Source: Basidiobolus meristosporus CBS 931.73
Taxonomy: Eukaryota; Fungi; Basidiobolomycota
Direction of reading: 5' to 3'
NCBI GenBank assembly: GCA_002104905.1
Contig: MCFE01000335.1
Span: 1-64,000, forward strand
Length of the DNA stretch: 64,000 bases
Part shown: piece after piece, positions 403 through 64,000 of the stretch
Numbering within the stretch: position 1 is the first letter of the stretch
Layout of the letters: each line of letters begins with the position of its first letter
Position numbers and translations under genes: made by a program
The notes under the pieces: model-generated
What the model was told of the DNA's origin: nothing
The model's database searches: none
Seen by the model: the letters and a program-made list of their open reading frames with translations, nothing else

Positions 403-404
403 AT

Positions 405-5863: not shown

Positions 5864-6853
5864 ATGTCCTCCATGAATTCGAAGCTCTCTCTGCTTGGCA
5901 TCGCTAGCCTTGCACTGACCAGCTCGTTCATTTCTTCCATCCAGGCCTACGCAGTCTCCAGCCCGGTACGCTATTTGGACCAATCGTGTGGTAGTGTGAA
6001 TGGCACTTGTGCTGCCGGACTCTGCTGTAGTCAATACGGAGTGTGTGGATACACCTCGGATCACTGCGGCGCCAACTGCCAGTCCGCATACGGCGCTTGC
6101 GATGATGGAACTGTCGCCAACGTATATACTGGCTGTACGGTTCCGGGCAACTTCGCAGTTACCTTTGACGATGGGCCAAGCGTGCTCACCTCCGGATTGC
6201 TTGACTACCTAGACTCAAAAAAGGTGAAGGCAACATTCTTCATGAACGGGCTTAACTGGAAGAACGACGATACCGGCAATGCAGTTCTCAGCATCTACGA
6301 TCTGGCGAGTGTGGTGAATCGGGCCTACCAGACAGGCCATCAGGTATGTTCCCATACGTGGAGCCACGTTGATTTGGTGAGGGTGAATAGCTACAACATC
6401 ACCTACGAGATGTCTCGCCTCAACCGAGCATTTGCCACCATCCTCAACAAGGTCCCCACCTGCATGAGACCACCCTACGGAAGCACCGACAATTCCTCAC
6501 TTGCGGTGCTCCAACGTATGGGCTACACCGTGACCACCTGGAATGTTGACCCGGTCGACTGGAATCCTGCCAACTCCATCGACCAGATGTATGCCAACTA
6601 TCTGAATCAAACCGGCGCTGCCGATCCCCAGGTCGGCAAGTTTATTTCTCTGGATCATGACGTTTGGAATACCACGGCGGATTTTAGGCCGGTCAACTAT
6701 CCGAAGACTATCCCCTTGGCTCAGCGGATCATCGAGTATCTCCAAGGTCTAAAGTGGAACCTTGTGCCTCTCTCCCAGTGCCTTGGAAGCAGCTCCCCTT
6801 TTTATCGCGACCCTACCCCATCCGACCAGGTTTGTGGGCCCAGTGGGTGCTAA
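5864..6853 (+). CDS. Secreted chitin deacetylase (signal peptide + CBM18/hevein + CE4 NodB domain), copy 1
   Basis: CCSQYGVCG hevein motif; CE4 motifs TFDDGP, HTWSH, RPPYG, DPVDW, LDHD all intact. Confidence 0.9.
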   Translation: MSSMNSKLSLLGIASLALTSSFISSIQAYAVSSPVRYLDQSCGSVNGTCAAGLCCSQYGVCGYTSDHCGANCQSAYGACDDGTVANVYTGCTVPGNFAVTFDDGPSVLTSGLLDYLDSKKVKATFFMNGLNWKNDDTGNAVLSIYDLASVVNRAYQTGHQVCSHTWSHVDLVRVNSYNITYEMSRLNRAFATILNKVPTCMRPPYGSTDNSSLAVLQRMGYTVTTWNVDPVDWNPANSIDQMYANYLNQTGAADPQVGKFISLDHDVWNTTADFRPVNYPKTIPLAQRIIEYLQGLKWNLVPLSQCLGSSSPFYRDPTPSDQVCGPSGC

Positions 6854-6911
6854 GCAGCAGCATCATCATCATCATCTCAACAATAAATTTTCATTCGGCA
6901 TTGAGAACATT

Positions 6912-7007
6912 TGGTATCATCCATCACAGTACCTCTGGTAACATTCGTCACAGTACCGCTGGTATCATTCAGGATAGGGCAGATGGCATCACGAGGCATT
7001 CATCGAC
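6912..7007. repeat. Four imperfect 24-bp tandem units between the two deacetylases
   Basis: TGG(T/C)A-starting units at 6912, 6936, 6960, 6984; first two share TCACAGTACC. Confidence 0.6.
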
Positions 7008-7240
7008 GATGATTTGCAGCATCAATACATAGGAACGGTGTCGTATAATAGGGTTGGGCCTTAGGGTTAAATAGCCTCTAGATTCGCATCTATTCGATCG
7101 AGATGGCAGTAGGCAGTGGTCTCTTTTGTTTCGGGATTAATTCTCCGCTATGTACGCTTCCCAAATACCTTTGATATCTGCGCCCTCGGCGACTTCTAGA
7201 TATCGATGCAATCTTCGATCATTAATAACTTCCTTGTAGA

Positions 7241-7246
7241 TATAAA
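7241..7246 (+). promoter_or_regulatory. TATA box of chitin deacetylase 2
   Basis: TATAAA 45 nt upstream of the ATG at 7286. Confidence 0.45.
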
Positions 7247-7285
7247 TATTCGGTTCCTTCAAGTGTCTTACACTCACATCCAACT

Positions 7286-8338
7286 ATGACGTACTCAAAG
7301 ATCACTCTGCTCTACATCGCTAGTATTGCTCTGGCCACCTCATTTCCACCCACCCAGGCCATCGTCGACATTGATGTCAATATGAACGACCATGACGCAA
7401 ATGGAGTAGAGCCTTCGGCGGATTCAACCGGCGTGGCTAGTGGCACCCTGCGCTATTTGGATCAGACATGTGGCAATGGGATTGGCAGTTGTGCATCCGG
7501 GTTATGCTGCAGTCAGTATGGTTATTGTGGATACACATCTGATCACTGTGACGCCAACTGTCAGTCAGCGTATGGCTCGTGTGATGATGGAACAGTGGCC
7601 AACGTCTACACGGGCTGTACCAAACCAGGGACATTCGCCATCACCTTCGACGATGGGCCTAGTGTGCTCACGACCGGATTGCTCGACTATTTAGGGACGA
7701 AAAACGTGCAGGCGACGTTCTTCATGAACGGGCTGAACTGGAAAAACTACGACACCGGAAATCCTATCCTTAGCATTTATGAACTTGCAAGCGTTGTTCA
7801 ACGCGCTTACAAACTAGGTCATCAGATCTGCTCCCATACATGGGGCCATGTCGATCTGATCACTGTGAATAGTTACAACATCACCTATGAGATGTCTCGT
7901 CTCAATCACGCGTTTGCCACCATCCTCAACAAGGTCCCCACCTGTATGCGACCACCATACGGAAACACCGACACTCCTTCTCTGGCCGTCCTCAAGCGTA
8001 TGGGTTACACCGTGACCACCTGGAATGTTGACCCGGTCGACTGGAACCCGGTCAACACGATTGACCAAATGCTTGCCGGTTATGTTAATCAGACTGAGGC
8101 GACCAGCCCCTATGACGGCCAATTCATCGCTCTGAACCACGATGTCTGGAATACAACCGCCGATTTTAGGCCCATCCACTACCCCAAGACCATACCCTTG
8201 GCTCAGCGTGCGATCGAGTATCTTCTCAGCCGTAGATGGCGCCTCGTGTCTCTCCCCGAGTGTCTTGGTAGCAACGCTCCGTTTTATCGGGACCCCACCC
8301 CGTCGGACCAGGTGTGTGGATTCTCGGGATGCCCATAG
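7286..8338 (+). CDS. Secreted chitin deacetylase (signal peptide + CBM18 + CE4), copy 2
   Basis: Close paralogue of 5864-6853; TFDDGP, HTWGH, RPPYG, DPVDW, LNHD; extra acidic spacer after the signal peptide. Confidence 0.9.
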   Translation: MTYSKITLLYIASIALATSFPPTQAIVDIDVNMNDHDANGVEPSADSTGVASGTLRYLDQTCGNGIGSCASGLCCSQYGYCGYTSDHCDANCQSAYGSCDDGTVANVYTGCTKPGTFAITFDDGPSVLTTGLLDYLGTKNVQATFFMNGLNWKNYDTGNPILSIYELASVVQRAYKLGHQICSHTWGHVDLITVNSYNITYEMSRLNHAFATILNKVPTCMRPPYGNTDTPSLAVLKRMGYTVTTWNVDPVDWNPVNTIDQMLAGYVNQTEATSPYDGQFIALNHDVWNTTADFRPIHYPKTIPLAQRAIEYLLSRRWRLVSLPECLGSNAPFYRDPTPSDQVCGFSGCP

Positions 8339-8687
8339 AGCGTAGACTATGTATAACTCTTATGCAATATACCACTCGAATCACGTATGTTACCCCCTCC
8401 TTACCGATCTATTCTGAACCCCCTTTTTATACCTCGGAAAATCCAATAAACGCGCATTTCTAAGGATTTCGTCGATTTTGGTTTCGACGGGGTTGGTCGA
8501 AACCCGATGATTTCGTGGTGATTCTCGTGGTGACGGATTTCCCAACCCATCATTACTAATGGCCCTGGACTGCATTGATTAGTAATTCCATCGAGTATCG
8601 TCATCTATATCTAGGGATTCGATTCGCCTGAGGTGAATCCTACCTTTGACCAAGCCGTTTATTTAAGTGACCAGCCACCGCTCCAAC

Positions 8688-9425
8688 ATGCAATCCACTT
8701 TAGCCCGACTTGGTCTTCTATCCCGTCACTTGAAATCAGTTATCATGTTCAAACCCAACATCACCGTGTACACCGCCGACACTCCCAACGGCCAGAAGGT
8801 CACCTTGGCCCTTGAGGAGCTAGGTATCCCCTATAATCTGAAGAAGCTCTCTTTCGCCAAGAACGAGCAGAAGGAGGATTGGTTCCTGAAGATCAACCCC
8901 AACGGACGCATTCCGGCCATCGTGGATCACTCCCGCAACGACTTCCCTGTCTTCGAGTCTGGAGCCATTCTTCTATACCTCGTACAGCACTACGATCCTA
9001 ACTATCGTCTGTGGCCGACAGATATCGACCAGCAATCGGAAGTGGTCCAATGGGTGATGTTCCAAATGGGCGGTGTGGGCCCTATGCAAGGACAAGCCAA
9101 CCATTTCTCCCGATTCGCACCCGAGAAGATCCCCTACGGTATCAACAGGTATCAATCGGAAACCAAGCGACTCTACCAGGTGCTGGACGGGAGACTTCAA
9201 GGCCGAGAGTACCTCGTGGGAGATCACCTAACCATCGCCGATATCATCAACTTCCCCTGGGTGCTGTCGCACAACTTCTCCGGCGTGAGCCTCGACGACC
9301 TTCCCAACCTCCAAGCGTGGGTGGAGAGGATCAGAAGTAGGGCCACCATCGAAAAGGCGTTCGGAAGCGAGGCGTTGGAGCGCCTAAGGGTGGTCGACGC
9401 AGAGGCTAAAACTGGCTCGGCTTAG
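8688..9425 (+). CDS. Glutathione S-transferase (Ure2p/YfcG-like class); in-frame ATGs at 8688 and 8745
   Basis: TPNGQKV, INPNGRIPAI, FESGAILLYL, QMGGVGPMQGQANHF and TIADI motifs. Confidence 0.9.
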   Translation: MQSTLARLGLLSRHLKSVIMFKPNITVYTADTPNGQKVTLALEELGIPYNLKKLSFAKNEQKEDWFLKINPNGRIPAIVDHSRNDFPVFESGAILLYLVQHYDPNYRLWPTDIDQQSEVVQWVMFQMGGVGPMQGQANHFSRFAPEKIPYGINRYQSETKRLYQVLDGRLQGREYLVGDHLTIADIINFPWVLSHNFSGVSLDDLPNLQAWVERIRSRATIEKAFGSEALERLRVVDAEAKTGSA

Positions 9426-9546
9426 GCACCGAATGACTTTCGACCTGGGCTGATGTTTTCCCTTGCAACCGTGCTTAGCCCCTAATGAAACTATGATTGT
9501 TAGTCCAAAAAAAAAACGAATAAAATCCGCGATGTGTATGTATAAC

Positions 9547-9566
9547 CGGTTCGGTTCGGTTCGGTT
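9547..9566. repeat. (CGGTT)4 microsatellite
   Basis: Directly visible. Confidence 0.9.
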
Positions 9567-9839
9567 CAGGTCAAGGTGGTGTTGTGCACCTCACGGAAAT
9601 TATCTGCCTTCTACTGGGCACACGTTGTAGTATGCTCTATTGATGTGGCGTTGGCACTCCAGCGGTGGGTAGTGTTTCTCGGAAACGGCTGATCTTGGGC
9701 TCCTCAACCTGGAATTGCCATTCAGAAGCTTTGACATTGGTGGGACTCACCTCCAGCGAGTTGAATCCTATGGTGTGAGTGAGGACACTAGGTAAGACCA
9801 CTAATCAGGTCCGTTTATACAACCATGCCCGAGCCAGGA

Positions 9840-10231
9840 TACCACCCACCTTGGTTCGACTTGATCTTCCAGCGTATTGACTTAGCCGATAAGCCTGACA
9901 TAGACGTATACATTACTGAGATTCCCATCAGTCACACTAGCCCTTGAGAGGTTGAGCGTTCCATATAGAGTGCTTACACTCTTTTCCACCAAAAATGAGG
10001 GGCAGATTTCTGGAAATCAACTCTAATGAACATATCCCAGCCATTCTATAGGCGATATTCCAAATGGCTGGTGTGAGCTTCATGCAAGGTCAAACCAACC
10101 ACTTCCTCCGGCTCGCATCCAAGAAGATCCCTTACGATGTCAATAGGTATCACATGGAAACCACGCAACTCTACCAGGTGCTTGACTGGCGACTCTAAGA
10201 TAGAGAGCACCTCGTGGGTGATCACCTAACC
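9840..10231 (+). pseudogene. Decayed, internally deleted tandem copy of the GST gene
   Basis: GTCACACTAGCCCTTGAG, GAAATCAACTCTAATG, CAACTCTACCAGGTGCT and GATCACCTAACC align to 8700-9235, with stops and deletions. Confidence 0.8.
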
Positions 10232-10630
10232 TAGCTGCTCTGAACAGTTGCTCACAAGGCCGGACGCATCTGATGGGAGCCGACGGCCTCCCCCATAGTT
10301 GTTCTTGACCTCCAACAAAAACATCGAAACTGTGAGTATGCAGTCACAGTGGTGTGGATCAGTCTCCATGGGCAATTGGGTCTAGCCAACCACTGCCCAA
10401 TATATGTAATCTACTCCAAATAGCAACATTATTGGCCTAGATGTCGAAATCACTGACTGGAATGTTTTCATGTGCTACGTTCATTGTATTCTGCCCAGGC
10501 GAAACGTTCGCCGAAAATGATTTGATCTGCACACCCTCCGTTCCACCAGGATCATGGCGGTCTACGTAAATGGCTGATTTATTCCAAACACGGTGATCAT
10601 CCGATCCGTAGAATATGTGAAGTGATTCCG

Positions 10631-12003
10631 TCACGAAGTCTCCTCCAACTGCTCAGGACGGAGTGGAAACAGCTGGTCCCTCATCATGGGCCACACCGTC
10701 AGGGAGACAATGGTCGTCAATTGCGGGGCTTGTCCTAGCATTGAGTGGCTTGGTTGCATGTTGGATTCTTTGACAATCTGGTTCAGCCGTTCACGCAGGC
10801 CTGGCAGGTTAGGATTGGACTCCACTGAGAAGCTGCCAGAGGGTTAGGTTTGGTCAGTAAGGTGGGGGCTTCCTTGGCAACTGTAAATGGCTTACTCATC
10901 GATCTTTTCCCCCCGTGCTTCAATGCATAAATCCACCACGAATCCTTGATGACGCGTGCTGAAACGAAGAGCGGAAACGCCGAGGGTGGAATCCTCCTTG
11001 ACCGTCAATCTACAGTTGAATCCAACACTATCGGGAGACGCTATCAACCAAATGGTCGGTTAACCTTAACCCTGATCCCTGAAGCTCTGGTCTGTATCTT
11101 ACGTGGAAAAGTCTCGGTTGCAGGATGAGCTCAGCTGCATCAGCTCGAGATACCAGAGAGTCAAAAGTTGCGATTGGGAATCGAGGGGAAGTCCCTTCAA
11201 CCTCTTGTAATGCTCGGCCGAGTTCTCTTGAAACCAACACGTCAATCAAGGGTCCCACCATGTGTAATTTACGTAATTTACCCGGGAGGAAAAAATAGTC
11301 GGTTTCCATTTGGGAGAAGGCTCTACCCCATGCAACCTCGTCTCGCACACTCTCCAGCTCTTCGCACTCTTCTTCCAAGGCGAGGGTGTCAAGCCACAGT
11401 TTCCCTAGCTCCGAAACTCTACACCAACCAAAGAGACCAGTCAAAAAGTGTACTTCGGGGGGGGCGGGCATTGTTTCCGTTTCAACAAATCCAACTTACG
11501 TTGGGTCGTCTCTGTCCTCCAGGGAGGCAAAGGCGGCCGACTTTTCGGACCCTATTTTCAACAAGTCAAGTTCGATCTCCTCGTTGACAAGGATCCGCCG
11601 TAAATTTAGCTACAGGTTGGGGAGGGAAGATAACGAGTGAATCTCAGGCGAACCGGGTGTCGAGGCTGGTCCAAACTTACTTCGTGGTGTTGATCCAGCA
11701 AGTGCTTAGTTTCTTTTCGAAGCTCAAGTAGTAGATTTTGTAACTCGTGCGCGGATTCCCGTCCCCTTTCCAAACTCTCCAATAAACTATCTAGAGGGAA
11801 GTCTGATCAGTGCTGCTCCACCCACTCAACCAGATGTTCCGCTTCTACCTGAGGTCTGCTCATGTTGGGTGATGTGTTCCAGGGTGGTTCGTAGGGACTC
11901 CACCTTGGAGAAGGAATTTTCCTTCAAAGCCGCAAGTGAGGTCATAGATGATCCTTGTTTACTCCGGCGGTAAATGAAGAATCCCAACCAATTTCTTACT
12001 CAT
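10631..12003 (-). CDS. 7-intron gene encoding a ~301-aa protein with an N-terminal coiled coil; function unknown
   Basis: GT-AG introns at 11999-11954, 11848-11791, 11680-11610, 11499-11419, 11281-11227, 11102-11010, 10895-10833; splicing gives a 906-nt open frame. First 4-nt exon is uncertain; alternative start at 11945. Confidence 0.8.
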
Positions 12004-12443
12004 CCCGGGATCACGAGATAAAAATAGATTTCAAGCCCAGTCCTCACTGAATCTAAGATTGTTCAGGCTACGCTGGGTTTCACGAGGCAGTACCTAATTT
12101 ATTAATCAATCCACCGCAGGGAATCCCATTTTCTTGACAATTCCCTGTATTACGCTGCTCTCTGCGGATCCATCCATTTCCCACCACCAATCAGGCCCCG
12201 GCGGAAAAATCAGGTGCGGAGTCAAGTGAGCGCTTTTAGGTTAGATCTGAAACGGCCATAGGTCATAGATAAGGTTAAAGTTATCGAACAGACGCGGTGA
12301 GGAAGTGAGTGCGCATAGCCTAATCAAGTGATGGAGATGACATGAATCCAGTGCCAAGCTTTAGCCAAAGACATCCCCCTTCCCTCGGAAATTGGCCAGT
12401 CTATAAAATCCCCCCGATCCCCCCATGTTGCCCCTCAACCAAC

Positions 12444-12830
12444 ATGGTCTACAATCCCTCGAAATCATTCAAGAAGCGATCAGCCTTCGACTTCTCGTTG
12501 GATCCGATGTACGAGGTCCCGAATTACAAGAGCATCGGCTCCCCAAGGATCACCACCGACAACTTCCACTCCCTGTACATCAATAGCTACTTCGACAACA
12601 AACCCACCAGCATCATCCTCACCCAAGAGAAGCCCCAGACTGTGAAGCCTTCAACCAAGGTTTCCTATAATATGGAGGACAGCTGGAGGACATGCCAGAT
12701 GTCGGCCAAGTTTTCTCTACCCAAGCCCAAGCCACAGATCAGAAGCAGCAAACCCGCTGACCGTCGACCACTAAACAACTCCTCCGTTTTGCAACGCTTC
12801 ATAAGGAAGCTTCGGCTATGCTGCCACTAA
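12444..12830 (+). CDS. Small hypothetical basic protein (~128 aa) ending RKLRLCCH
   Basis: TATAAAA at 12402 and AACATG start; no recognisable domain. Confidence 0.5.
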   Translation: MVYNPSKSFKKRSAFDFSLDPMYEVPNYKSIGSPRITTDNFHSLYINSYFDNKPTSIILTQEKPQTVKPSTKVSYNMEDSWRTCQMSAKFSLPKPKPQIRSSKPADRRPLNNSSVLQRFIRKLRLCCH

Positions 12831-15269
12831 CCACTTCCGACCCCGACCCTGACCCAGCTTCCAACCTCATCCTGACCCCTCCGTATAAATATAACCTTGC
12901 TAATCTTGTAAATTTCTGACCAAAGGTCATTGTAACAATAAAGAGATAACCAGCACCCGTAGTGTCCCATGATGTCAGGAGGAAGTCATCGACCCTGACC
13001 AAAGCCCGCAACCAATCCCCCCTCGGAAGCTTCCACGAAGGTTGATCACCTCACGAACAGGTGAATCAACCATCAACAAACCACCCCCCTCGTCCAACCC
13101 AACCCCCTACCACTCAGCATCTCCTACCTTGTCTCGTTCCCGATCTAGAAAGCACCGCGGTCGGTGGGGTTTGGCGGGCAGTGAGACAATGCATGATCAC
13201 CCCTTGGATATGGATTGTTCCAGGTGGGTCCTTGGATAGTTCCGGTGGAATGGGTGTTACCAAACAAAGATTAAGGTTGAGGAAACATTCATTCTAGGTG
13301 GTGGATCTGAGATGACCGATTCACGCCCATCCCAAATTGGTCCAGGGTTAGGGTTGGACCGAAGCTTTGGCTGGATCAAGCATGGTTTGTTTGGTCTGGC
13401 CTGGCCTGTATGGATGGATAAGGACCAGTGATCCGTGACGTTCGGTCGACAGGTTGGTGCATTGATCTGGCTTGGTGTGGTTGCTTTTGGCTTCTTGGAT
13501 GATCCTTCCTATGCAGTACGGATTGCTGGTAAACGAAGTGGAGGCTCATTTAGCCGCGACCGGTCCTTCCCATCCGCCCAGTGCTCCCAGGAATTGGGGG
13601 GGGGTGGTGGTATGCTTAGGGGTACACAAACAAACGATACGCGTCTCGACCAGGGATGTATTGCCTCGATCTGGCGTGTTGTTGTCCATGGCCCTTTGTA
13701 CACGGCTTCGAGGCGTCCCATTGGTTGGATTCCCCACTTGTCAACATGCGGGCTCCCCTCCCCACTGCTTGGCATTGGAGTGACATCTAGAGCAGCTGGA
13801 GAGACCTAACTATAGCCCAAAACCCGAGCGGCGAGCCCATTTTTACTCGAGTTAGGCTTGGTACTCCACCCAAGCCTACGCTGAAGGGAAGTTCAGGGAG
13901 GTTGGCTTCGGTCGGGTCCGACCACAGGCTCTTCCGCATCCACATAGCCTAGGTAAAGGCTCGTCTCTTCTGTGCTGATGGTCTCCACACCAAGGCCACC
14001 CAACTGTATATGGTCCGCGGGGTTCGGTGGCGATACGTCTAGGGGTTACGCAACAATCAACCAATGCCACCTCGATCTGCGCCCGAGAGTCCCGCTCGCA
14101 TTGACGCCTCGTTCCTCGATTCGTAGGCCTTGGTGAGCGGGTTTCGTTCTGAAGATGCCGCTTAATAAGTCGACACCGGTTCGTACCACCTTCGCGATCG
14201 CCGGTTAGGGGTTGAGCGGGGACGGGGGACGCTTTCGGCTTACCGCTGTGGAAAGGGGCTCGGGGTGGTTCCGGGCCTGACCTTCCGGGTCGGAACATGC
14301 CATTCTGCGCCCATGGGCTCGCTGCATGAAAGTCGAACCGGGTGGCCGACTGACGAGCGGGTCTTCTAGGCAAACGAAGGTATAGCGGATTCTGCGGCAT
14401 GGCCAAACCAGCAATGGGCCCTGGTGGACTGAACATGGAGACCTGGATATCCATCACGTCTCACCGTTCGAAACCCGGGAGGTGCGAAAGAGGTCCCCAT
14501 CGCGTTTGCCAAGGCCAATACTTCAGGTAGGCCTTCAACGTAACATCCACTTGGTGGCTTACTTCAACCCGCTCCAAACCTGGGGCTTCCCAGGCACCCG
14601 AAGGTATCCTGTGGTATCCGGCCGCTATCGTTCCTCCGTAGGGACATGATTCTTGCTGGAAACTGTGGGCGGCTTGACATGCCCAAAATCACAGTCCTCC
14701 GATATACCATTCGGTTGGTGAATCATTATCATCATCGTCGTCGTCGTCCTTGTCCCAACCCCGGTCTATATCGGAGCGTTCTATACGGATCCGGGAGATG
14801 GGCATTTGAAGCATCAACCATGCGTACCTCCTCAGCCAGGTGCGTGCGTGTGAACCAATCAAGTTGCCCACGAGATGGTTCGAGCATTCCATATGTGGAC
14901 GCGGCAAGGTATCTCAGGTCCTACACAGGATGATGTAGGCTTGTTGAACTGGACTGGGATACCCGCTGGAGGTGTACTTCATGACAAAATCTTGCAAACC
15001 GGAGGGTTTGTATGGTTCACACATGTCGACTGACCACCTGCAAATGAGCCGTTGATATTTCCGATGGTATCCCAAACTCTGCACACACACTCTTGAGTCC
15101 TCTCTTCATCATATTGCATAGGCCTCTTCTGACAGGACAATGTAAATGTACCCCAAGAAAAAAAAACTGCTAAAGCCCCACCACATGCCAGTGTCACATC
15201 AGTTGAGTTACAAGTTTCTATAAACTTACAACTTGCAATATCAAAGGTTCCAGCTCTTGGGCACACAAG

Positions 15270-20100: not shown

Positions 20101-22150
20101 TATGGTATGCAAATGGTAGGGATGGTGACATGGGTTGAACATGTGTGACGGGTACTGGCATGGGTACTTGCCTAATATAGAAGAACTTATAGCTAGTAAT
20201 CTTACATAAAGTGAGGGGTAACTTATGCAATAAAGTAAGCAGGTGTGATAGTCAACCGGCTTATGGGATAGTACTGATTGGGTAAGATCAATGGGATAAA
20301 ACTAAAATCAATGTAGTAGAGATACAGGGAAGTAGAAAATAAGGGAATGAGCATATCTGTCAGTGGGTGTCACTGTCACCCCACTACAGCGCACCCAGCA
20401 ATGGTAGCAAGACTGAACAGAATATCAATATTATAGCACATTTTTGTTAATACTCATGCAAGGTTGAAACATTCCTGTATTTGAAATATTGCACCAAGAT
20501 GAGTGTAAGAACCAATGATGACCCACCACTGTAAGCATTATAAACAAAGTTGTGCACCACGTACCCAGATGAATGTAACAGTATTTCCCCTTTGGTTTGA
20601 CTAAATTCTAAAAATAAGCAGCCAAAAATAAAGCAAAGATGCTTGATTCCCATCCAAATCCCACTACTGACAGCAGCAGAAGAATGCTTAGACAACAGCT
20701 TGCTTTGAAATTCAGTGCAACAAGTGGGCTTCATCCACAAAAGGCCCTGTTGACAGTGCACCCACTAATGGTAATAATGCAAACTCCTCAGGCTCTTGGT
20801 CAAGTAGGCAACTGCAAATGTCTGCAGCACTGCAAGCAGACCATGATGCTCAGGTATATGAGAATAGAGCAAATGCAGTACCTCTGATGGATAACCAGCA
20901 AATGGCTGTCACAACTTCACCACCACCAGTATCAGCAAGTATATTGCCAGCTCATACAAAAGCACTAATGAGGCAAATTAGTGCAGTGACAAATAGGATG
21001 GATGCATTGGCCCAGAAGAATCAGCAAGTTGTCCAGAAACAGGATGAGCAGCATGGAAACTGTTCTATGAGCATTATTCTGGACTCAAAAAAGCAAATGG
21101 ATCTTGGACTGGCATTGGCATAATGAGCAGGTATCTCAAGAATAGCAGAAACAATTAAAGGCAGGAATATCCGGGTGCCATAGTCAAAGACAAGCAGCTT
21201 CCTCAGGACCCAGTTACATGCGGACCAAAAGCTATAAACAAGTGGCAAAGAAGCATCAAGTAGCCACAAGAGTACTAGTAAGTAGCAAGCAGGCAGAAAA
21301 AGATGAACCAGTCCTACATGTAACAAAGAGAATGGGTAGGTGCATTGAATAAGCACTCATTCAAGGTATCAGTGAAGTAGATGAAAGTAATAAGCAATAG
21401 CAGCTTCCTCAGGAATGTGCCATAACAAGGGCTGAAAGCTCAAAACATGCAGCAAATAAGTGTTAGGTTGCCAGCAGAGTGCTGGTGAGGGACAAGCAGG
21501 AAGAAATGGATGCATCAGTGCAGCACCTATCATGGAGAAAGCATAGTACGATACAAGAAGCACTCTGGCAAAGTAGCAGCAAAGAACTGGCAGTGACAAA
21601 GGAGAAGTAAAGGGAAAGAAGTCTACCTAAGATGGAGACAGGGAAGCAAGGGAAAAAGCTGTAGCACTCACCAGTTAATGTCATAAGCCTGGAATAGGCT
21701 GAATCCCATGTTAGCCAAGAACAATTACAAAAAAGACAACAGCAGTTTTCCTAACAGTTGGAAATGCTGCCAGTTGGGCTACACTCCCATGAGGCAGACA
21801 ATTTTGCAGCAAAAGGAGGTTTGTCTACCACAGCCTCCACATTGCAGTTGGGTCATAGCAAAATGTATCTCCCCCTTAGACTTGTACATTACCACAATGT
21901 CCTCCATTGTAAACAGAGTGGAGATCACGCCAACAGAAATGCAACATATCAAGAACTTCAATGACTATCCCCATACCTATAGTGGAGTTCCTGGGACAAT
22001 AACAGGCACAGCCAAAGATTGCAGCTCCTCTTCACAAGGGTGCAATACCAGTGCAGTCAGCAACATCAAACATTTAAAAAGAACGCTTGCAATCGCAATC
22101 CCAGTACCATTAAGAAAAAAAATTAAGAGAAGGCCATCAAAATATCATTA
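17135..22150 (-). mobile_element. CACTA/EnSpm copy, internally deleted: left end, transposase relic (-), ORF2 relic (+)
   Basis: Left end CCCTGTGAAAAATAA at 17135; Transposase_21-like KSCRLLILTNQNLPPILQY...SGPKSPSNLD; ORF2 relic at 20620-22150. Confidence 0.75.
19400..20388. mobile_element. LTR-like insertion related to 37361-38165; boundaries approximate
   Basis: Shares AAGTGATTACTAAT, GAAGGTTCTAA, CAACCAATCA.GAATCAGTA and ACCATATATGGTAT blocks. Confidence 0.55.
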
Positions 22151-30167: not shown

Positions 30168-31052
30168 TTACTCTTCATAATGCTCCAGACACATTTCTCT
30201 CAGTGGATGTCTTCTTGTATGAACATACTGTGCATTAATAAGTATCTTAACTATTTTACCTATTCTGCTGTTTTCATCTATATATGACTTTCCTCTGTAT
30301 TTACCTGCCAATATGCTGAATCTCTTCAGATATCCAAATGTGTGCTCTACCCTTACTCTGAAATGATTAAATATCTCATTGTAGAGCTTCTGCTTCCTGC
30401 TAAGCACACCATTCCTTGGCTTCCTATAAGCTGTAATACATCCTAATCTCTGACAATCCTCTCCTATATAGGCCAAGTCTGCCATACATTTCTCCCCTCT
30501 ACTGAATTCAGGATGATTCTCTACCCAGAGTGCTTTGTCATGCCTACTTCCAGCAAATGGCCCACTAAACCAGATGATGTTACCCTCAATGTCAGACAGT
30601 GCTTGAAACTTCACACAGTGTGCCTTGTACTTGCCAGAATAAAAGTGCCTCTGCCCTCTAGAAGGTCTGTTAATCCTCACTGGGAAGGTATCCAAAATAC
30701 TCCTGATATGGAACCTGTTGCTGAACACTCTGGGATATGGAAGTCTATTGGAGCTTCTGAACCTAGTATTCCAAGCTTGCTCTAAGTCATTCATACCCTC
30801 TGCAAGGTGGTTCTCCATTGCTGTCAGCTGGGAATGAAAGCTTCTAGGACTTTCGTTGCCATGGATGGTGGGATGAAACCTTGTAGGGCAATAGTTCTTT
30901 TAATAGCAGAGAAGCTTAACAAGGGATCTCCTTGAGTAGATTGGGGTTGATGGTCCACAGTACTTGGAATAGATCTCCTCCAGTGTGTCAAAAGGAAATC
31001 CAGTGGTAGTGATGGGATTGATGAGAAAAGACCATTCAGATGAGTAAGTCAT
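30168..31052 (-). pseudogene. DDE_Tnp_4 (IS5/Harbinger-type) transposase, ~294 codons, one premature TAA (TAC in copy 2)
   Basis: ILDTFPVRINRP, YSGKYKAHCVKFQ, GSRHDK, MADLAYIG, RVRVEHTFGYLKRF. Confidence 0.85.
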
Positions 31053-31504
31053 ATTAAAATTGATGGATGATTGTATGGAGGTGGTTTGAATCGATTTGGC
31101 GCAATCTGCGTTATTTATCTGATTTTTAACACATTATGGTTAAATCTCCATCAATTGCCATGTATCCCATCATTATGTCGCAAAAATCATCCGCAAACAA
31201 TGCCTTGGTACTTTTATTGATGCTTTAATCATAGGTCTATAATCTAATAGGAAATCTGCAATTGATGTGATCTGATCCGTGTCAACGCAATCCAAGATGC
31301 ATCATGCATAATATATGGAAAATTCAACAATCACTTTAGTTTTCATATATATTTCATATAAGACCAGGTTGATGCCAATATACTGCTGTATAAGTATCCA
31401 AATCCGTTGCTATGGTCCCCATACCAAGCCTCAACTCATCTTTAGTACAACCCAGACAAAACCCATCCCCCAGCTCACTAGCGCGGTCCGGACCGGAGAA
31501 GTCG

Positions 31505-32674
31505 ATGTCGGATCCGTTCAAGTTCTCCCCAAATGATTTTAGTATGGCCCAAGTGTCTATGATGTGCCTTCATACAGATATTTGGGCACTACTGATTAAT
31601 CTAGCAGAACTAGATACCTCAGAGAGTTGACAAAGATGGAAGAATTTGAGTAGAAAGCTGTGGCATGAGTTCTACATCAAGATGCCAGCCGATGTATGTA
31701 AAAAGATATATAACAAGACAAGTATTGAAATCAAGAATGAGCTGAGAGTGAGGGGATTTGACGAGGAAGCCGCGCGGGAACAATTTTGCGCGCAATTTGC
31801 ACAGTACGGGCCGGACGCGTCCGTTTGTGCCTCAACTTTGGGAACCAAAGAGATTTTGAATGAATTTTTGCCTCAAATGACTAATGTACTACGTGATATA
31901 TTAGTAGAGCTAAGTGGCTTCTGAGAGCAATATATGCAGGACTCATCCAGGCAACAGCTCCAAAGTATGAGACAGAGGGTAAGTGAATACCTTGAGGAAT
32001 CAGATGGTGAGCTTCAGGAGGAAGAATACAGACTGCAAGCAACATTGTCCAGATTGCGCCAGCACGCCTCGCTGGATTCCCTAACATCTCTTGCAACCAC
32101 AGCACGCCGGCGCACGTCAGTCCAGACCATGCCAACACCCTTTAACAGAATGCCCCGCGTTGAGTCAACGTGCATTGAGTCAACGCGCGTCGGGTCAACG
32201 CACGCGCTTCAGAGCAAAACTACCAGAACTCGCCAAACTGCTCATTTAGACACAAGTCCATTGGAGCGGACTGAGTCACGTCAACATGTGGCATCACATT
32301 GAACTCAGCCAAGGGCCATCTCAACGCGTCAAGGCGCGCCTGCGCGTGCCGTTTCGCCTGACCATCAGCAAGTTACTTCTGGTGAAATGACTGATGATGA
32401 CCAACATGAAGTGACTCAACCACTGGAGCCCTTGGCAAGTAAAAGAACGCGTCAGCGCGTAGCACTACAGGCCGGTTCAGTTGGTTCAGTCGGAGTGATT
32501 CAGCGCGGCCAAGCTGCAGCATTGCACTCATCAACTAGGAGGCAAAATACTGACTACAAATACACAAGTAGCCAAGATGATAGTCAGCCAGGAAGTAGTA
32601 TAGGTGTGCAAAGTGAGTCACTACCAAATGCTTCAGTAGTAATCCCTGTGAGAAAAAAACCCAGGAGAAGATGA
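31505..32674 (+). pseudogene. Second gene of the PHIS element, ~389 codons, divergent from the transposase, ending RKKPRRR
   Basis: ORF pieces 31412, 31646, 31934 and 32387 share one frame; the three internal stops are all TGA, consistent with CGA decay. Confidence 0.7.
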
Positions 32675-35355
32675 TGCGATTGCTTTGAATCGCTCACATT
32701 TGTAATGATCCCAACAGCCCTTTTTTTTTTGCAATCTGAATCAAGCCATTGCAAATCAGTGATCATCAAATTTTTGATATAAGTAATATCAAGGACATCT
32801 CACATTTGAGACAGAACCCCTATAAATAAACACCCTGCATATATATACGTCATCTGTAATACCAGTGCAGCTATTGGATCTGTTTCGCACCTACACAATC
32901 GCTTGCATGCTAGCTATGACACCTTGCCCAATCACTAGGATCAGGGACTTACTTGCTCAATGGGCTAAATGGGATATTTGATGGCAAATCAGGTAGCTTT
33001 TTCAGTAGTCAATGAGCCAATTGGGGGCTGCCAGCTTCAGGATACTTTTGGACCAATTAACCACTGAGATACCGTCCAATTGGAGTGAGGGTAACCAAAA
33101 TGGTAAGTATCAGTGTAGTTTATAGTGTGATACACATTTATTTCCATTTACATTAAAGAAACATATCCAAATACCGGATTTTACCTGCCATTATAGTGGT
33201 ATCTGATCGCGCACGTGATGCAAGCATTACAAGTTGGCGCAATCATCTGCGCCAACCTCATCGTGTCAGATTGTGCCATAGTGTGCGAGATTGTCCCGCA
33301 TAGTGCAAAATTGTCCAAGAACGATCCTGCCTTCTGGTAGCTATAATATTGCGCCCGATTGTTCTTTGCAACCAGCGGATCACGCCGCACGCCCTGGCAT
33401 GGTACGATGGAACAAGTCTAGTATCTTTGCAGCAAAGAAGGAACTCAAGTAGCTCAATGTCACAGCCAAGAATTGAGCCATTTCCCAATGTAGCAGCAGA
33501 GGAGCACCATGCAGTCTTTGGGGCACAGCAACAGTGCCTAAAGATAAAGCCCACAGAAAAACCTATCACAGCATGGGAGGGAGACAATGTGGTGTTTATA
33601 CTAAAGCCCAAAAATCAAAAGATATTGAAGATCCATGAGGCCATTGAGTGCAAAATGAAGAGTGGGCTAATATATAAGAGGCTGTCAGAAGTCTAGCACA
33701 CCATCACCTTAAGGCCAGCATACCATGGGACCATCAGGAACTCAAGGCCAAGCAGAATGCACTTGACTTGTTCCATGAGCATTATCCTGAATTCAAATGG
33801 GCAAGTGGATTTTGGGCCAGCATTGGTATGCTAAGGAAGTATCTCAAGAATAGCAGAAACTATCAAAGGCAGAAGAACAAGGATGCCATGGCTAAAAACC
33901 AGCAGCTTCCTTAAGAGCCCATTGCAAGCAGGGCCAAAAGCTCCAGACAAGCGTCAAAGAGACGCTAGGCAGCTGGAAGAGTGCCAATTGGGGACAAGCA
34001 GGCAGACATGGATGCACCAGCACAACATTCATCAAGGAAAAGGCATAGTACCACTTAAGAAGCACCCAGCCAAAGTAACAGTAAAGGACCTGGCAATGAT
34101 AAGAACTAGCTGCTTTTATATGAGCCCATCACAACTACAGTTGAGAGCTCAAAACAAGCTGAAAAGAAATGTAAGGTTGCCAGAAGAGTGCCAGCAAGGG
34201 ACAAGCAGGCCAACACAGATGCATCACAGCGGAATTTATCCAGCAGAAAATGTAGTTCTTTGTAAGAAGCACTCAGACAAAGTAGCAGTGAAAGACCTGG
34301 CAGTGATAAAGGAAAAGGTAAAGGGGGAAATGTCTATCCAAGCCTGAGAAAGGGAGGCATGCAAAAAAACTGCAGTTCTTGTCAATTAACACTGCAAGCC
34401 AGGAACAGACTGAATTCCATCATAGCCAAGAAGAATTATCAACAAGACAACAGCTGTTTTCACAAGAGTTGGAAGCGCAGCCAGTTGAGCTACACTCCAG
34501 CAAGGTAGATGAGTTTGCTGAAAAAGGCAATTTGTCTACCACAGCATCCTCAGCCTCCATTGCTGACAGGGTGGAGATCCCACTGACAGATAAGACCACA
34601 ATGTCAAGAGCTCAAAAGACTATCACAATGCCTTCAGTGTAGTTGTGGAACATCAATAGGTACACCAAGAGGTTGCAGCACTTCTTCAAGAGCAGTGCTC
34701 AAGAATGCACTGGAATATTGCAAGGAATTATTGCAAAGACTAGTAGATGAGGAGCTAGACCTGGCAGTGCTGGCTGAAGACCAGGATGTGTGGGAATCAG
34801 TGAATGAACAGTGGCATAAAGCCATTGGGTTCCTGCCAAAGTCATGGAACCAGAGCGTTACAGCAGAAATACTTATTGAGTGGTGGATTTTAATGGAGCT
34901 ACTTATTGAGTATGGTGTTGTGCTTAATGTTAGTGTAGGGTATAGGGACTTGTATAGGTCAATAAAATTGGCAATTGAGGTACAACTGGAGGTTCAATGG
35001 AAATAAACCAATTTGTATGCATGAAAAGTAAGAGAAACAGATGAGTCAGGATGCAAGCAGTGTGAAAAAAAGGTAATAGGCAATCAATTCACACAAATGT
35101 AGAAGGCAATAGAGTGTCTGGGATCAGAAAGTGAGCAAATTGGCAGGGACTCAATCAAAAGTCACTTATACATTGTTGTGATGAAAAATTTTGACTAAGT
35201 TTTTTGTGAAATCTGGGGTGCCATTAGTTTCAACAGTCTCTGGACAGTGTCTTGCCACAATCAGTACCTCTTAGTCACAGGACTTGCAATTTGTGATGGC
35301 CTTTTGATGGGATCATCTGAATAATTTTTCATAGGGCAATGTAGCAAAGGCAGTA

Positions 35356-53290: not shown

Positions 53291-54490
53291 TGATTTGATT
53301 ATAAGGAACTTATCAAGAAATAGTGATAATGGTTGGACTGTTGTTTATCCATAAAGAGGATCAGTATTTATGCCTTTGTAGATGTAATGCAGCTGTTACA
53401 CTAAGTAAGGAGGGTTTATTAGCATTCAGGAGCATTTGATAACAGTTTCAGGGTTAGAACATAATATTTGGTCAAAAGTGTTAGTTTGATTTTTACTACA
53501 GGAAAATAATGTTAGGTTCATAGATCTAAAAAAACTGGCAAAGCTGGGGCTGCAAATTAGTCCTAAAGAGACCAAGACTAGTCTAGAGTTGTTGAGTAAA
53601 TTTCTGGCTGCTGAATGCTACCAAATAGTTCAATATCTGAACATTTCCCTCAACTAAATAATTTCTCATTCTTCTCTGAGATTCTTGAATTGTGGTCTAG
53701 CTAGTGGTTTATCAATATATCTGCCACCATTTTGTCAATATATTGGCCACCATTTTGTCAGTTGGACAGTAAACTAACTCTACTAAGTTATTTTCTACAG
53801 CTTCCTTCACAAAGTTGTGTTATATAATTATAAGCATAGTACTGGCATGATTAGTAGAATTCCTGGCTAATGAGATACAACTTTGATTATCTTTGTGAAT
53901 ACATGTTGATTCATCTTAAGTAAAGTCTAAGTCTTCAAGTAAGCTCTATAGCCATATATCCTTAAGAGTTGCTTGCCAAGCAGTCATATATTCAGCTTCA
54001 GTTGTGGATAGGACCATATTTGGTTGTTTCTTGCAACTCCAATCAATAGCTGCACCAGCATAAAGAAATACATATCCTGTGGTAGAGCATCTATTAATCA
54101 GATCCCTACCCCACTTTGAATCCCTAGAACCATCAAATATTTGCCTATTAGCTGCTCCAGAGTATTCAGGTACCATATTTATGGTACCTTGTAGCTATTT
54201 GAAAATCCACTTAACCGCTGTGATTTGGCCTGATCCATAATTCAGCATGAGTTTACTGACTATTCAAACTGCCACTGCAGTAACTGGACATGTAGACACC
54301 ATCTAGTACATTGTGCTACCAACCATTGCTTGGTAGGGAAAGTTTTGGTCCATATTTGAACCATATTCACCTAAAACTGGCTGAGATTTGCTCAATTATA
54401 GATTATTGTCCTTAGGGATTGTTGCAGGTTTGCAATCTTCCATATTGGGTGTCCAGAAATATCCCTGATGTACTTAGACTGATAGAGCAC
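53290..54490 (-). mobile_element. Second Ty1/copia 3-prime fragment with probable LTR
   Basis: RCSTTGYVFLYAGAAIDWSCKKQ...LSTTEAEYM; purine tract then TGTTCAG near 53644; 24-bp tandem duplication at ~53725-53770. Confidence 0.75.
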
Positions 54491-55498
54491 AATTTTGTAG
54501 AACAGAAGTTTTGGTAAGAGAAGGTTGGTGGCTTATAAGAACTTAGTCATCATCCAACAATAACTTCTTGTAAGTTTGGTTGACAAAGATTGAGTTTGGG
54601 TTGTCAATAGGAACTTTGTTGTTAGGTATAACAATATTTATGTGGTTAGAAAAGGATTTTAAGTTATGCTTGTGAATACAAATAGGAATACAGATGTTAT
54701 CCAAAATATATTTTGGGATATAAATTGTGTTATAGTCAAGACATAGATCTCCGGTAATAACACTACAGGCAGATCTTTCTGTACGTTTTCCAAGCATAAT
54801 GTCACAAAAGATGCCATTTTTTCTGGACAGAAATTTTGCCATACCTTCTGTACATTTGGTGCCCACAATTTTTGAGTAAGCAAGATAAATGTTATGAACC
54901 TTGCCTTTTTTGGCATAGTTGACTAATTGTGTATATTTGGTGGATAAATCTGACATATATTCAGGATCTTCTGGGGAGCAAGTTTGAATAGGGGGGATGA
55001 GAATGTATTAATAATGTAATTGGTAATTTTGGAGTTATGATAGAGTTTAGAATTCTTTTCAAGGGTAGAACAAATTTTATCTAAGGATATTTTTATGCCT
55101 GATTCTTGAGAAGATTTGGAGGTAGGTTTGTGTAAAACTAACCCATCTCTAGTGACAGAATAACTACAAAAAAGTTTTGCTTTACATTGTGGCCATTTAG
55201 TTTCATCATGATTGGTGATTTTAATGCCGCATGAGCTACACATGTTGTTGAGTTTAAACTCTAAATCTTTTTTAAACAATGGGTGACATATGTAAGTGCC
55301 AATATTTAAGTATGCATAATGTCCTGTGCAGTGTTTATTACATTTGATGCAAATATCACCATGGGTGCAAGGACCAAATTTGGGATTGTAGATATCCCAA
55401 GACTTGTTGCGACAGAAGTCAGCAAGTTTGGTAATTTGTTGGTCACATAAAAGGTTACATTCCATAATGTGCATAGATGTGAGTGTTGGTAAGGACAT
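54490..55498 (-). pseudogene. Divergent, compact RNA polymerase largest subunit (RPB1/beta-prime) N-terminal third; virus-like
   Basis: KFGPC..GDICIKCNKHCTGHY Zn site; CHPLF...CSSC; ILIPPIQT after a frameshift near 55000; GKRTERSACSVITGD; VLISHQPSL; cut before NADFDGD. Confidence 0.85.
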
Positions 55499-55515
55499 TT
55501 TAAAAAAGTATTCTA

Positions 55516-55975
55516 TTAATTTGTAGATGCGTATCTAAAACAAATAAATTTGTTGCCAATCATGTATGCATTTTCATGCTCATGAATATGTTCACAAAAT
55601 CCTCAATAGGTTGGTTTAATACATTTCAAGGTTACTGGGCCACTGTCAAGGATTTTTCTAACTTTAAAACTGGCAGGGTTGGATGAAGGGGGAGTGTCTG
55701 AAGATGGTTTAGGTAAAGGAGGGTGGGAGATGAAATATTGGTGGAGTTGGGATTCAGGGATAGAGATGAGGTGCATAGTTTGTGTATTAATTTTACCCAA
55801 TAAGCTATCAGGGAAAGATTTGGGATAAATTTGTTGGGTGCCAAATAAGTATTTCCATCTTTTTTGTTGCCATTTGGTGGTACCTTAGAGGTGGAAACCT
55901 TGAACCAATTGTATATGCCAGTATCAACAAATAGAGTCCAGGGAGAGTTTTGTGAGAATTGGATCAGGGAATTGG
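55516..55975 (-). pseudogene. C-terminal half of an AEP-superfamily primase with Zn finger; virus-like
   Basis: Reading through stops: QGFHL*GTTKWQQKRWK (motif III-like) and LKCIKPTY*GFCEHIHEHENAYMIGNKFICFR. Confidence 0.65.
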
Positions 55976-55976
55976 T

Positions 55977-56391
55977 GAGAATGTGCTGCAGCCTTTTGCA
56001 ATGGCTGTTGTTGCCCCTGAACTCCACTGTAAGCATTGCAAAAGTCTTTCCAATTCTAGACCTCATTGCTTTGTGCATCAGTGGCATCTCCACTCTGTCT
56101 GCAGTGAAGGATGTGGAGGCTGTACTAAGTAAGTTGCTTTTTCTGCAAGCTCATCCACCTCACCATAGTGTAGCTCAGGTGACTGCACTTGCAACATGAG
56201 TAAAGAGCTTTTGTCTTATTTGTGAATCTTCTTGGCTATGATAGGATTTAGCCTATTCTAGGATTAGGCTTTTATTGGCAAGAACTACAGCTTTTCTTAC
56301 AGTTCCTTGTCTCTGGCTTGGGTAGATATTTTCCCCTTACCTTTTCCTTTAAACTGCCATGTCTTTTGCTGCCACTTTGTTGGAGTGCTTC
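55977..56391 (-). mobile_element. CACTA ORF2 internal fragment
   Basis: Reverse complement of ~34300-34690. Confidence 0.7.
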
Positions 56392-57412
56392 TGTGATGAT
56401 TGAAAGTATGCCTTTATTATAATATAACGAAACCAATACAGCACTTGTTTCTTTGTTTTGCCTCTGGCTATTATCAAATGCAAACAAAGGATCACAAATA
56501 TGCAACATTGATGGCCAAAAGCTCAATATCCCAGTAATTGTTTCATCCTAGAATATTATGTCATGCAGAGCACTCCGTAGCTGGCACATGTTTCAGGTTA
56601 TATCTCATTTGAAGGAGTACTTATGGAGTTATGATCACAAGAGTACAGTAACCATATACTAGTCCTCTATTGCTCTGATTATTATAGCCTTAAAACCCAT
56701 CAATTAATCCACCTGATTTTCTTACAGGTGCTGTGTCTATATTTGATCTGCACCACTGTAAAGGTTCAGCTTTGTATCAAATGTATTGAATGCCCAATTG
56801 TTCAAAAACTTTGCTCCTTCAGAATTCTTATATACTTGACTTCCCCAGCTGAAATATAAAGCAGAGCCTCTGTTTCCAGAACCTCCACATGGCAATTCCA
56901 AGTATAAAGGCTTTAGGACCTTACCTTCACTGCTTGCACTTTTAAGAATGTTGACTTTTGTTGGTACAACATCAGCAAGGCAACTGCAAAGCTCACAAGA
57001 GTCCAATGTAAGTTCTACAAGAAAACAACTACTTTCTATTGGAAAAGTCCCCTCCGCAATGCCCTTTCACTATAACAATACCCCTTTAGACACCCCTTTA
57101 GCCCAAATATCCCTTCAGTGACTCTTTCAAGAAGTCCCTTTACTCTAAGAAGTCTGTTTAAGCGCCCCTTTAGTGTCAAGTCCACATTAGAGACAACTCT
57201 AAGATGCCCCTTTAGTCTAAAGACACCACCTTAAGTCTAAGGTCCCCTTCCAAGACCCCTTAGCAATACTGCTAAGGTACATGGAGGGTTCAGAATTTGT
57301 AAATATGAAAATAATATCTCAGAAAGCCAAGTGACTTCCAGATCAGGTAAAGTTGCCATAACAGCTAATGCACCCAATAGCTGATGGAAGGTCAGAACCC
57401 TGCTGTAGAAGT
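56392..57412 (+). mobile_element. Family X copy, 3-prime truncated and fused to gypsy RT
   Basis: Start TGTGATGATTGAAAGTATGCC; CCCCTTTA repeats ~57080-57270; junction at TGGGGAGCAC. Confidence 0.7.
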
Positions 57413-62778: not shown

Positions 62779-64000
62779 CACTATGAAAAGTTATTGAGAT
62801 GAACACATCAAAAGGCCAGAACAAAGTTAAATTCCTGTGACTAAGAGGTACTGATCTCATCAGGATACCATCCAGAGCCCATTGAAAAATAAATGTACCC
62901 CCAATTTCACAAAAACTTGGTCAAAATTTCTCATCACAACAACATATTGGTGGCATTTGATTGGTTCCCTGCCATTTTGCTCACTTTCTGATCCCAGACA
63001 CTCTATCACCTACTACCTTTGTGTGCATTGATTGGCTATTGCCTCTTTTCCACACTCCTTACTTCCTGACTCAACCGTTTCTCTTATTGTTCATGTGTAC
63101 AAATTGATTTATTTCCGTTGAGAATTCAGTTGTATCTCAATTGCCAGTTGTATTGACCTATACAAGTGCCTATACCCTACATTAACATTGAGACCAGCCC
63201 CACACCCAACAAGTAACTCCATTAAAAACCACCACTCAATAAATATTGCTGCTGTAGCATGTTTAGATCTACCGCTTGAATGTTTAAGTTAGATCAGTTT
63301 TTAGTCAAATCAGTTAGTTATATGTCTAGCCTATCAGTATATTGTTGCTCTTTATTGATTAGGTGGCATTAGTTAGCAAATGAATTAGCACATCCTTATC
63401 AGACAGGAATAGATATACTAAGTAGGATCTTATTGGGCAATGATGATGCAGTCAAATAGTCATCAGCCACAACCTACATTAGGAAATACAATTACACAGC
63501 AATTGATATGTCAAAATGTATATAAGGGGCTGCTGGAACATCAATAAAAAACAGTTCAAGTTTTAGTAAATACAATACCAGCTAAACTCCCTATTTCTCT
63601 ACAAATCTTATAACAAGACTTGTAACAAATGCTCTGGTTCAACAACTCTGGCAGGAGCCTAACAGCTTTATGCCACTGTTCATTCACTGGTTCCCACATG
63701 TCCTGGTCTTCAGCCAGCATAGCAAGGTCTTGCAACTAATCTGCCAGTCTTTGCAATGAATCCTTGCAATATTCCAGTGTGTTTTCTTAAGCACTGCACT
63801 TGAAGAAGTGCTGCAATCTCTTGGTGTGCCTATTAATGTTCAAAATTTCCACTGAAGGCATTGTGATAGTCTTTTGTGCTCTTGACGTAGTAGCCTTGTC
63901 TGTCAGTGAGACCTCCACTCTGTCAACAATGCAGGACATGGAGGCTGTGGTAGACAATTATCCTTTTTCAGCAAACTCATCTACCTTGCTGGGTGTAGCT
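62779..64000 (-). mobile_element. CACTA element entering by its right end and running off the window
   Basis: Terminus CACTATGAAAAGTTATT at 62779; reverse complement of ~34500-35336. Confidence 0.75.
63260..63627 (+). mobile_element. 368-bp gypsy-family solo LTR
   Basis: TG...CA ends; same family as 41322 and 59864; host ORF2 rejoins. Confidence 0.85.

Follow-up and report, generated by a model that had tools for sequence, protein, structure and literature searches.

A decayed primase and RNA polymerase relic of probable fundsalphavirus type in Basidiobolus meristosporus, and a high-depth relative in another isolate

The window analyzed here, a 64,000-nucleotide stretch of Basidiobolus meristosporus CBS 931.73 (positions 1 to 64,000 of contig MCFE01000335.1), contains, within a block of repeats, a broken fragment that carries parts of two viral genes and shows CpG decay. 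This relic was probably captured from a fundsalphavirus-type relative of the giant viruses, the free form of which likely still replicates in another isolate. The fundsalphavirus-type nature of the relic can itself be stated with considerable confidence, and the relic is very likely a new member of a group that has already been described. Here, we lay out the evidence from the two genes, their relatives and the sequencing runs, and then weigh the competing explanations.

The relic and its setting

The window falls into two parts, with a sharp border near position 15200. The gene block (1-15 kb) has a GC content of 50% and a CpG observed/expected ratio of 0.8, and its chitin deacetylase and other genes are consistent with a fungus. 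It includes a tandem pair of chitin-binding polysaccharide deacetylase genes (5825-6853 and 7229-8338) that are 77% alike in DNA. The relic sits in the repeat block (15-64 kb), where GC content is 40% and the CpG ratio 0.11, and where repeats are 65-94% alike and CpG-decayed. A DDE_Tnp_4 transposase ORF (E 4e-24) occupies 30168-33400, with repeat copies at 35.4-39.7 kb and 44.8-47.3 kb; the CpG ratio of about 0.7 at 31-33 kb suggests that part of this repeat is younger or unmethylated. The features of the relic and its flanks are as follows.

54477-55982, minus strand: two-gene viral relic (3' half of a primase gene and 5' part of RP1n)
55516..55982, minus strand: decayed 3' half of a PrimPol-type (AEP) primase gene with C-terminal Zn finger, matching residues 128-282 of protein P0157
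55466..55515, minus strand: intergenic gap, 50 nt to the homology-supported start
54477..55465, minus strand: decayed 5' part of the gene for a compact split RNA polymerase largest subunit (RP1n)
53700..54476, minus strand: left flank, a very high-copy decayed repeat, directly abutted by the polymerase
55978..56392, no strand assigned: right flank, a dispersed repeat of unverified class with no Pfam match

The initial annotation, made from the sequence alone, had proposed a viral relic in which a primase Zn-finger gene lies beside a compact, intronless RPB1, and both profile searches and trees bear out that proposal; the motifs that it named are present in the sequence. Its gap of 17 nt is indeed the distance to the first in-frame ATG (55498), but 50 nt is the likelier distance between the genes, because the homologous proteins P0001 and P0002 both begin at a methionine aligned to 55465. 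The 1.5 kb had also been said to match no other repeat in the window, and no second copy of 54490-55975 was found there. The stretch is not unique in the genome, however, since sequencing run X1 contains at least two further diverged copies, one of 1830 nt that is 82% identical over the matched pieces and a short one with 10 differences in 151 nt. These copies suggest that capture or duplication happened more than once.

A Pfam search of the left flank (53700..54476) gave no match; an RNase H motif would make this repeat copia-like. Over 53991-54536 the depths of X1 contigs sum to 6e4-2e5, as against 145-740 over the relic. The right flank had been called a CACTA fragment, a label that is not upheld by Pfam; within the window this dispersed repeat recurs at 34265-34685, 21556-21842 and 63848-63986. 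Useful terminal or target-site repeats were sought around the relic and none was found.

The relic has a CpG ratio of 0.12, close to that of the repeat block and far from that of the gene block. Deamination of methylated CpG converts arginine codons into those for cysteine, histidine or glutamine, and just such losses are seen: relative to P0001, the RP1n fragment retains arginine at 2/17 sites versus 225/312 for other residues, and 13 of the 15 arginine changes are to Cys, His or Gln. The primase fragment retains 3/7 arginines relative to P0157.

A compact, split RNA polymerase subunit

The polymerase fragment comprises the N-terminal ~320 codons, from the Zn clamp cysteines through the QPSL motif, with one frame break near 55007 and one stop at 54545. 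It ends at the left repeat, about 25 codons short of the catalytic DFDGD motif. The second RPB1 frame passes the cut-off for Pfam RNA_pol_Rpb1_2 (E 6e-8), while the best PDB match of the first is asfarvirus RPB1 at E 0.014. Across both frames, the relic matches residues 1-323 of P0001, a 447-aa protein from a 3.5-kb contig of B. ranarum, with 69% identity (E 1e-121).

Intact relatives of the fragment stop just past the bridge helix, at 550-690 aa, so that the largest subunit is split and its N-terminal half is a gene of its own. P0002 (607 aa) exemplifies the intact form, with clamp cysteines, the catalytic motif at 333, the bridge helix and then the stop. A search of 1.84 billion representatives together with a profile search returned many such proteins, and we chose 95 compact RP1n proteins among the 150 and 120 matches listed. 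The median length of these 95 is 648 aa (447-730, some of them partial), and their catalytic motif lies at median residue 350, compared to 481-495 in two Pol II rows. Compact RP1n proteins P0003, P0010, P0152, P0222 and P0267 lie on contigs of 19.8, 25.7, 26.6, 97 and 102 kb.

P0002 scores 170 bits against Pol II, 122 against Pol III and 114 against Pol I, and up to 432 against members of its own family; its best PDB sequence matches are to Pol II. Some 830-860 columns are needed to align the predicted model of P0002 (pLDDT 87) with Pol II; for a protein of 607 aa, this suggests that roughly a quarter of the region has been trimmed. When this model was compared with the viral structures of BFVD, the matches were, in order, Pithovirus LCPAC104, an unnamed protein, Pithovirus LCPAC101, an iridovirus and a ranavirus, so pithovirus and iridovirus proteins account for four of the top five. 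An asfarvirus origin is therefore not favored for the polymerase, for which the nearest named viral structures are pithovirus- and iridovirus-like and the asfarvirus connection consists of the one PDB match given above.

Scans with A1 and P0004 matched mainly through the universal DFDGDEM motif, and among the at least 160 loci of the A1 scans, only L121 and L001 are members of the clade by score. Viral contigs searched with P0001 and P0009 yielded no relative, and the matches in PLSDB were to bacterial rpoC only.

Phylogenetic placement

In a 138-row tree from a quick search, the relic pairs with P0001 and then joins P0002 and P0003 (99), within a 35-row compact clade (99) that also contains P0235 from Mortierella and the metagenome locus L121; P0231, one of the 39 rows labeled compact, falls outside this clade. 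In a 39-row tree from a careful search, the same groups recur: the relic with P0001 (100/99), these with P0002 and P0003 (100/100), and a compact clade of 14 rows (100/99) that again includes P0001 of B. ranarum and P0235 of Mortierella. Forcing the relic and P0001 together with seven Pol II rows in the 39-row tree is worse by 290 log units (p-AU 5e-52). The check proposed at the outset, grouping with host RPB1, thus ends in rejection for Pol II, with Pol I and Pol III unlabeled in the tree.

How far does this placement reach? The relic covers only 27% of the tree columns, and long branches may attract one another. The Pol II rows were labeled by tail repeats or position, one of them (L124) being confirmed as Pol II in PDB, and three archaeal rows were labeled by NCBIfam; the trees hold no labeled Pol I or Pol III, killer-type plasmid, Mycodnaviridae or published fundsalphavirus or moss sequences. 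The exclusion of Pol I and Pol III would accordingly follow from the bit scores of P0002 (114 and 122, versus up to 432 within the family).

A stand-alone primase

The primase frames of the relic correspond to P0157 from its residue 128 onward, with 107/127 and 19/23 identical residues in two frames (84%). P0157 is a B. meristosporus protein of 282 aa whose gene lies in a 154-kb contig; it is the nearest relative with a name for the primase, as P0001 is for the polymerase, so that in both cases this relative comes from a Basidiobolus assembly. The fragment has a frame break near 55907 and stops at 55887 and 55605, ahead of the natural stop at 55518-55516. P0157 carries DxD (69-71) and SxH (110-112) motifs, a third motif (147) and a Zn finger, all conserved in a three-row profile, A3; the relic has lost the part with DxD and SxH and has kept the third motif and the Zn finger. 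With a primase that lacks the first two catalytic motifs and a polymerase that lacks the active site, the window copy cannot work.

P0157 by itself had no match in Pfam, PHROGs, NCBIfam or PDB, and its single-sequence fold has a pLDDT of 32. It aligns with a viral-contig protein that carries a weak UL52 Zn-finger match (E 8e-7), and, at E 4e-21, with a primase from another viral contig in which an origin-binding helicase is part of the same protein, in keeping with the likeness to primase-helicase fusions noted for this gene in the initial annotation. Profile A3 finds PrimPol as its best PDB match (E 7e-14) and the poxvirus D5 primase at E 8e-5, so that the upstream gene does have the AEP/Zn-finger identity claimed for it. 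The DxD, SxH, third motif and Zn finger of PrimPol-type primases and of the primase-helicase fusions of large DNA viruses all align with P0157, but P0157, unlike the fusions, stands alone at 282 aa with no fused helicase. Primase scans matched one locus, and no homolog of P0157 was found in the clade loci L121 and L169.

Related loci and the described group

Metagenomes provide a view of the genes that accompany RP1n. Locus L121, which takes up 13.4 kb (1-13433) of a 16.5-kb contig, encodes RP1n, a D5 helicase, a DUF5757 protein, an 824-aa family B polymerase (PolB) with exonuclease and several ORFs without assignment, all intronless and almost gap-free. By eye, a 359-aa ORF appears RP1c-like and a 191-aa ORF SSB-like, with comparisons that are not significant, and capsid families sought in the 10 ORFs scanned of this partial locus gave no match. 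L121 is a candidate for a near-complete core cluster. On a 40-kb viral contig, L169/L001 encodes a 780-aa split RP1n from a lineage sister to the compact clade, along with D5, DUF2738, a capping enzyme and DUF5757. The ORFs of L121 and L169 match the window at RP1n only.

The published group to which the relic very likely belongs has as its genes RP1n, RP1c, RPB2, RPB5, PolB and D5 helicase. Members of the fundsalphaviruses and the NCLDV-like elements of moss would be recognized by linked D5, SF2 helicase, methyltransferase, RPB2 and RPB5 and by the lack of capsid and packaging ATPase; at the window locus, 1.5 kb survives. According to the accessible parts of PMC7017919, fundsalphaviruses have split RP1n/RP1c and an affinity to pithoviruses and other Pimascovirales, and they are endogenous, broken and flanked by retrotransposons in fungi of early-diverging lineages, among them Mortierella and two species of Basidiobolus; one Basidiobolus contig is mapped there with D5, RPB5, RP1n and PolB. 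The relic is likewise endogenous in an early-diverging fungus, with stops and frameshifts and with adjoining retrotransposon-type repeats. Fundsalphaviruses were defined on PolB, and the window has none, so that membership is likely rather than proven, and the PolB screen of PMC7017919 would not list this locus.

The initial annotation had attributed the relic to a divergent cytoplasmic DNA virus or virus-like plasmid, possibly of an undescribed lineage. A viral relic, rather than a paralog of Pol II, is what we find, but the lineage is not new: split RP1n has been described in Basidiobolus, Mortierella and moss, as accessible sections of PMC7017919 and PMC4083422 attest. Two features do go beyond what we found in print, namely the stand-alone primase and the high-depth relative described below. 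A stand-alone primase is present at the window locus and absent from the accessible text and gene maps of PMC7017919, which present the fundsalphaviruses as fossils only, without read depth or a free form. The NCLDV-like regions of Physcomitrium resemble the relic: RP1 is split, the core genes are densely packed without introns, insertion occurred independently several times, and the donor would be cytoplasmic. They differ in the moss host and in that their living donor is not known (PMC4083422, accessible portion). Table 1 of that paper lists D5 and no separate primase, which may hide among eight families of unknown function. Neither a free or high-copy fundsalphavirus nor a primase belonging to one turned up in a literature search that lay mostly outside the subscription journals; among the matches listed, the word 'fundsalphavirus' occurred only in the 2020 paper, and the terms 'virus' and 'plasmid' were not found in the available text of a study of 19 Basidiobolus genomes (bioRxiv 10.1101/2025.03.31.646025).

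Mycodnaviridae are also giant-virus DNA in fungi, but the available text of PMC13533422 describes zoosporic hosts, kinship with Algavirales and Imitervirales, genomes of about 350 kb, a major capsid protein and an integrase, and it leaves Basidiobolus unmentioned. The fold matches of the P0002 model would favor Pimascovirales over that affinity.

A high-depth relative in another isolate

Six sequencing runs were screened, and words of the window sequence were present in two. Runs X4, X5 and X6, from one sample of a different study than X1 and X2 with the same species label, were matched at 80% identity, and each has contigs collinear with the primase and RP1n. In X4, one 3890-nt contig carries four matched pieces, amounting to 577 nt at 84% identity to the window. 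The depth of the relative's contig is 5029 in X4, 5143 in X5 and 2266 in X6, compared to 14.1 (range 10-14), 14.3 and 7.05 for low-depth contigs. The resulting ratios for this one sample, 357, 360 and 321, use contig depth as a proxy rather than a copy number, and a baseline of only six low-depth contigs assumed to be single-copy nuclear.

Gene order in the high-depth relative is the same as in the window and the spacing is nearly identical, with differences of +1, -1 and -15 letters. The -15 falls in the primase linker. The +1 spans the frame break of the window copy, which suggests that the frame is open there in the relative; an intact frame is predicted for the contig, of which only 577 of 3890 nt align at the 80% threshold. 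The contig also keeps more CpG than the window relic. At transitions where the relative has G or C, 8/14 are in CpG against a background of 0.26 (p 0.015), in a pooled test that drew on the 38 of 92 differences that were listed; an A/G-only test, with fewer sites, gave 5/11 and is not significant (p 0.07).

One end of the contig is fixed at 1808 nt past the last primase match in all three runs and is either a terminus or a repeat boundary, and the other end varies (925, 439 and 1924 nt past the last match). The element is at least about 4.9 kb in size. X4-X6 also contain a separate low-depth contig (804, 894 and 674 nt; depth 14.1, 14.3 and 7.05) that matches window positions 54501-54550. This is the QPSL region of the polymerase, and the contig is likely a nuclear relic residing beside the high-depth form in the same isolate.

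Precedents for reading depth as replication are the coverage of about 50-fold for Mycodnaviridae in Allomyces (PMC13533422) and of 4-80-fold for killer-type plasmids (PMC13348850), each as given in the accessible text. The depth of about 350-fold for a close match in another isolate indicates that a virus-like donor is likely still replicating, and it suggests that an element otherwise known from fossils alone has a free form that replicates. We regard the existence of such a free form in that isolate as rather more probable than its absence.

Origin of the relic and competing explanations

The proposed donor would be a cytoplasmic DNA replicon of Nucleocytoviricota descent that persists in some isolates. 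It would replicate and transcribe itself with its own enzymes (RP1n, RP1c, RPB2, RPB5, PolB and D5 helicase), and the stand-alone primase may lay the primers for RNA-primed replication. The cytoplasmic site is taken from the reasoning of PMC4083422 (accessible text), according to which an element retains a complete transcription apparatus in the cytoplasm and nowhere else. Pieces of the donor would reach the nucleus accidentally and repeatedly, where they would be methylated like the surrounding repeats, deamination would deplete their CpG, and inserting repeats would break them up. Whether the donor makes particles is about an even question. The nature of the donor has been debated since 2014: it could be a very small virus, one that depends on a helper, part of a large virus or something other than a virus (PMC4083422, accessible text); because the high-depth relative is in public runs, the question is now directly testable.

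Perhaps the donor of both the fungal and the moss fossils is alive in Basidiobolus as a persistent, capsid-less, miniaturized derivative of a giant virus that replicates in the cytoplasm, reaches hundreds of copies per nucleus and goes on seeding dead copies among the host's repeats. This suggestion, which we make tentatively, would give the donor its own PolB, its own helicase, a primase that stands alone and an RPB1-type polymerase among the smallest. Slightly better placed, though still short of even, is a conventional capsid-bearing large virus (at least 100 kb) of which only the core replication-transcription cluster has been seen. Such a virus is compatible with our reading of the relic, and it is an option raised in accessible portions of PMC4083422. 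Family members on contigs as large as 97 kb and 102 kb (with contents that are unread and perhaps host DNA) and a sister row, L001, from a 40-kb viral contig favor it, while the failure to find a capsid family in the 10 ORFs of the partial, 13.4-kb L121 argues against it.

A further explanation accepts the relic but denies that the high-depth relative is a free element of the fungus, taking it instead for an amplified chromosomal array, for the virus of some co-cultured organism or for something that amplification of the library produced. The signal comes from one sample whose library type is not on record and from contig depth alone, and the fixed contig end may be a repeat branch point. Against this explanation stand a ratio that is steady over three runs, the contrast between the diverged, CpG-decayed repeats of the window and a 3890-nt contig that is unbroken and keeps its CpG, and the 84% identity to a chromosomal fossil in a fungus labeled as the same species, a likeness that links the lineage with this host. 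Taken as a whole, the explanation is unlikely.

The remaining alternatives fare much worse. Killer-type virus-like elements with a protein-primed polymerase are common in Zoopagomycota and are cytoplasmic, high-coverage and capsid-less, with their own virus-derived RNA polymerase subunits (PMC13348850, available text); by analogy, they may be a lifestyle parallel of the donor. As the source of the two genes they are very improbable: replication of killer-type elements is protein-primed, L121 has a D5 helicase and a family B polymerase of 824 aa beside RP1n, and the accessible main text of PMC13348850 contains neither the word 'primase' nor a mention of Basidiobolus. Misassembly or contaminant DNA is more improbable still. 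Junction support comes from short-read contigs in runs X1 and X2 that are possibly the window's own source, and no one contig covers the whole stretch; nonetheless, the left junction lies within one X1 contig (54368-54622, 0 differences), the right junction lies within X1 and X2 contigs spanning 55843-56600 (0 and 2 differences), and the relic shares the repeat-type CpG loss of its host. A processed pseudogene of host Pol I, II or III beside a host PrimPol fragment, as might be read from the PDB matches of P0002 to Pol II and of the primase profile to cellular PrimPol, is largely refuted and has a negligible probability, given intact relatives that end just past the bridge helix, the rejected Pol II grouping and a primase-RP1n pair that is collinear in an independent isolate.

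Capture from a fundsalphavirus-type relative that likely still replicates in another isolate therefore remains our preferred account. The window copy by itself is an ordinary fossil. The compact RP1n, at about 600-650 aa, is a natural minimal model of a eukaryote-type polymerase. If the capsid-less derivative suggested above is real, it would represent a plasmid-like lifestyle in an RNA-primed Nucleocytoviricota lineage with many metagenome relatives. The accessible text of PMC13533422 reports capsid genes in one non-zoosporic species only; that record would be extended if a walled fungus without zoospores proved to carry a living DNA virus or a replicon derived from one.
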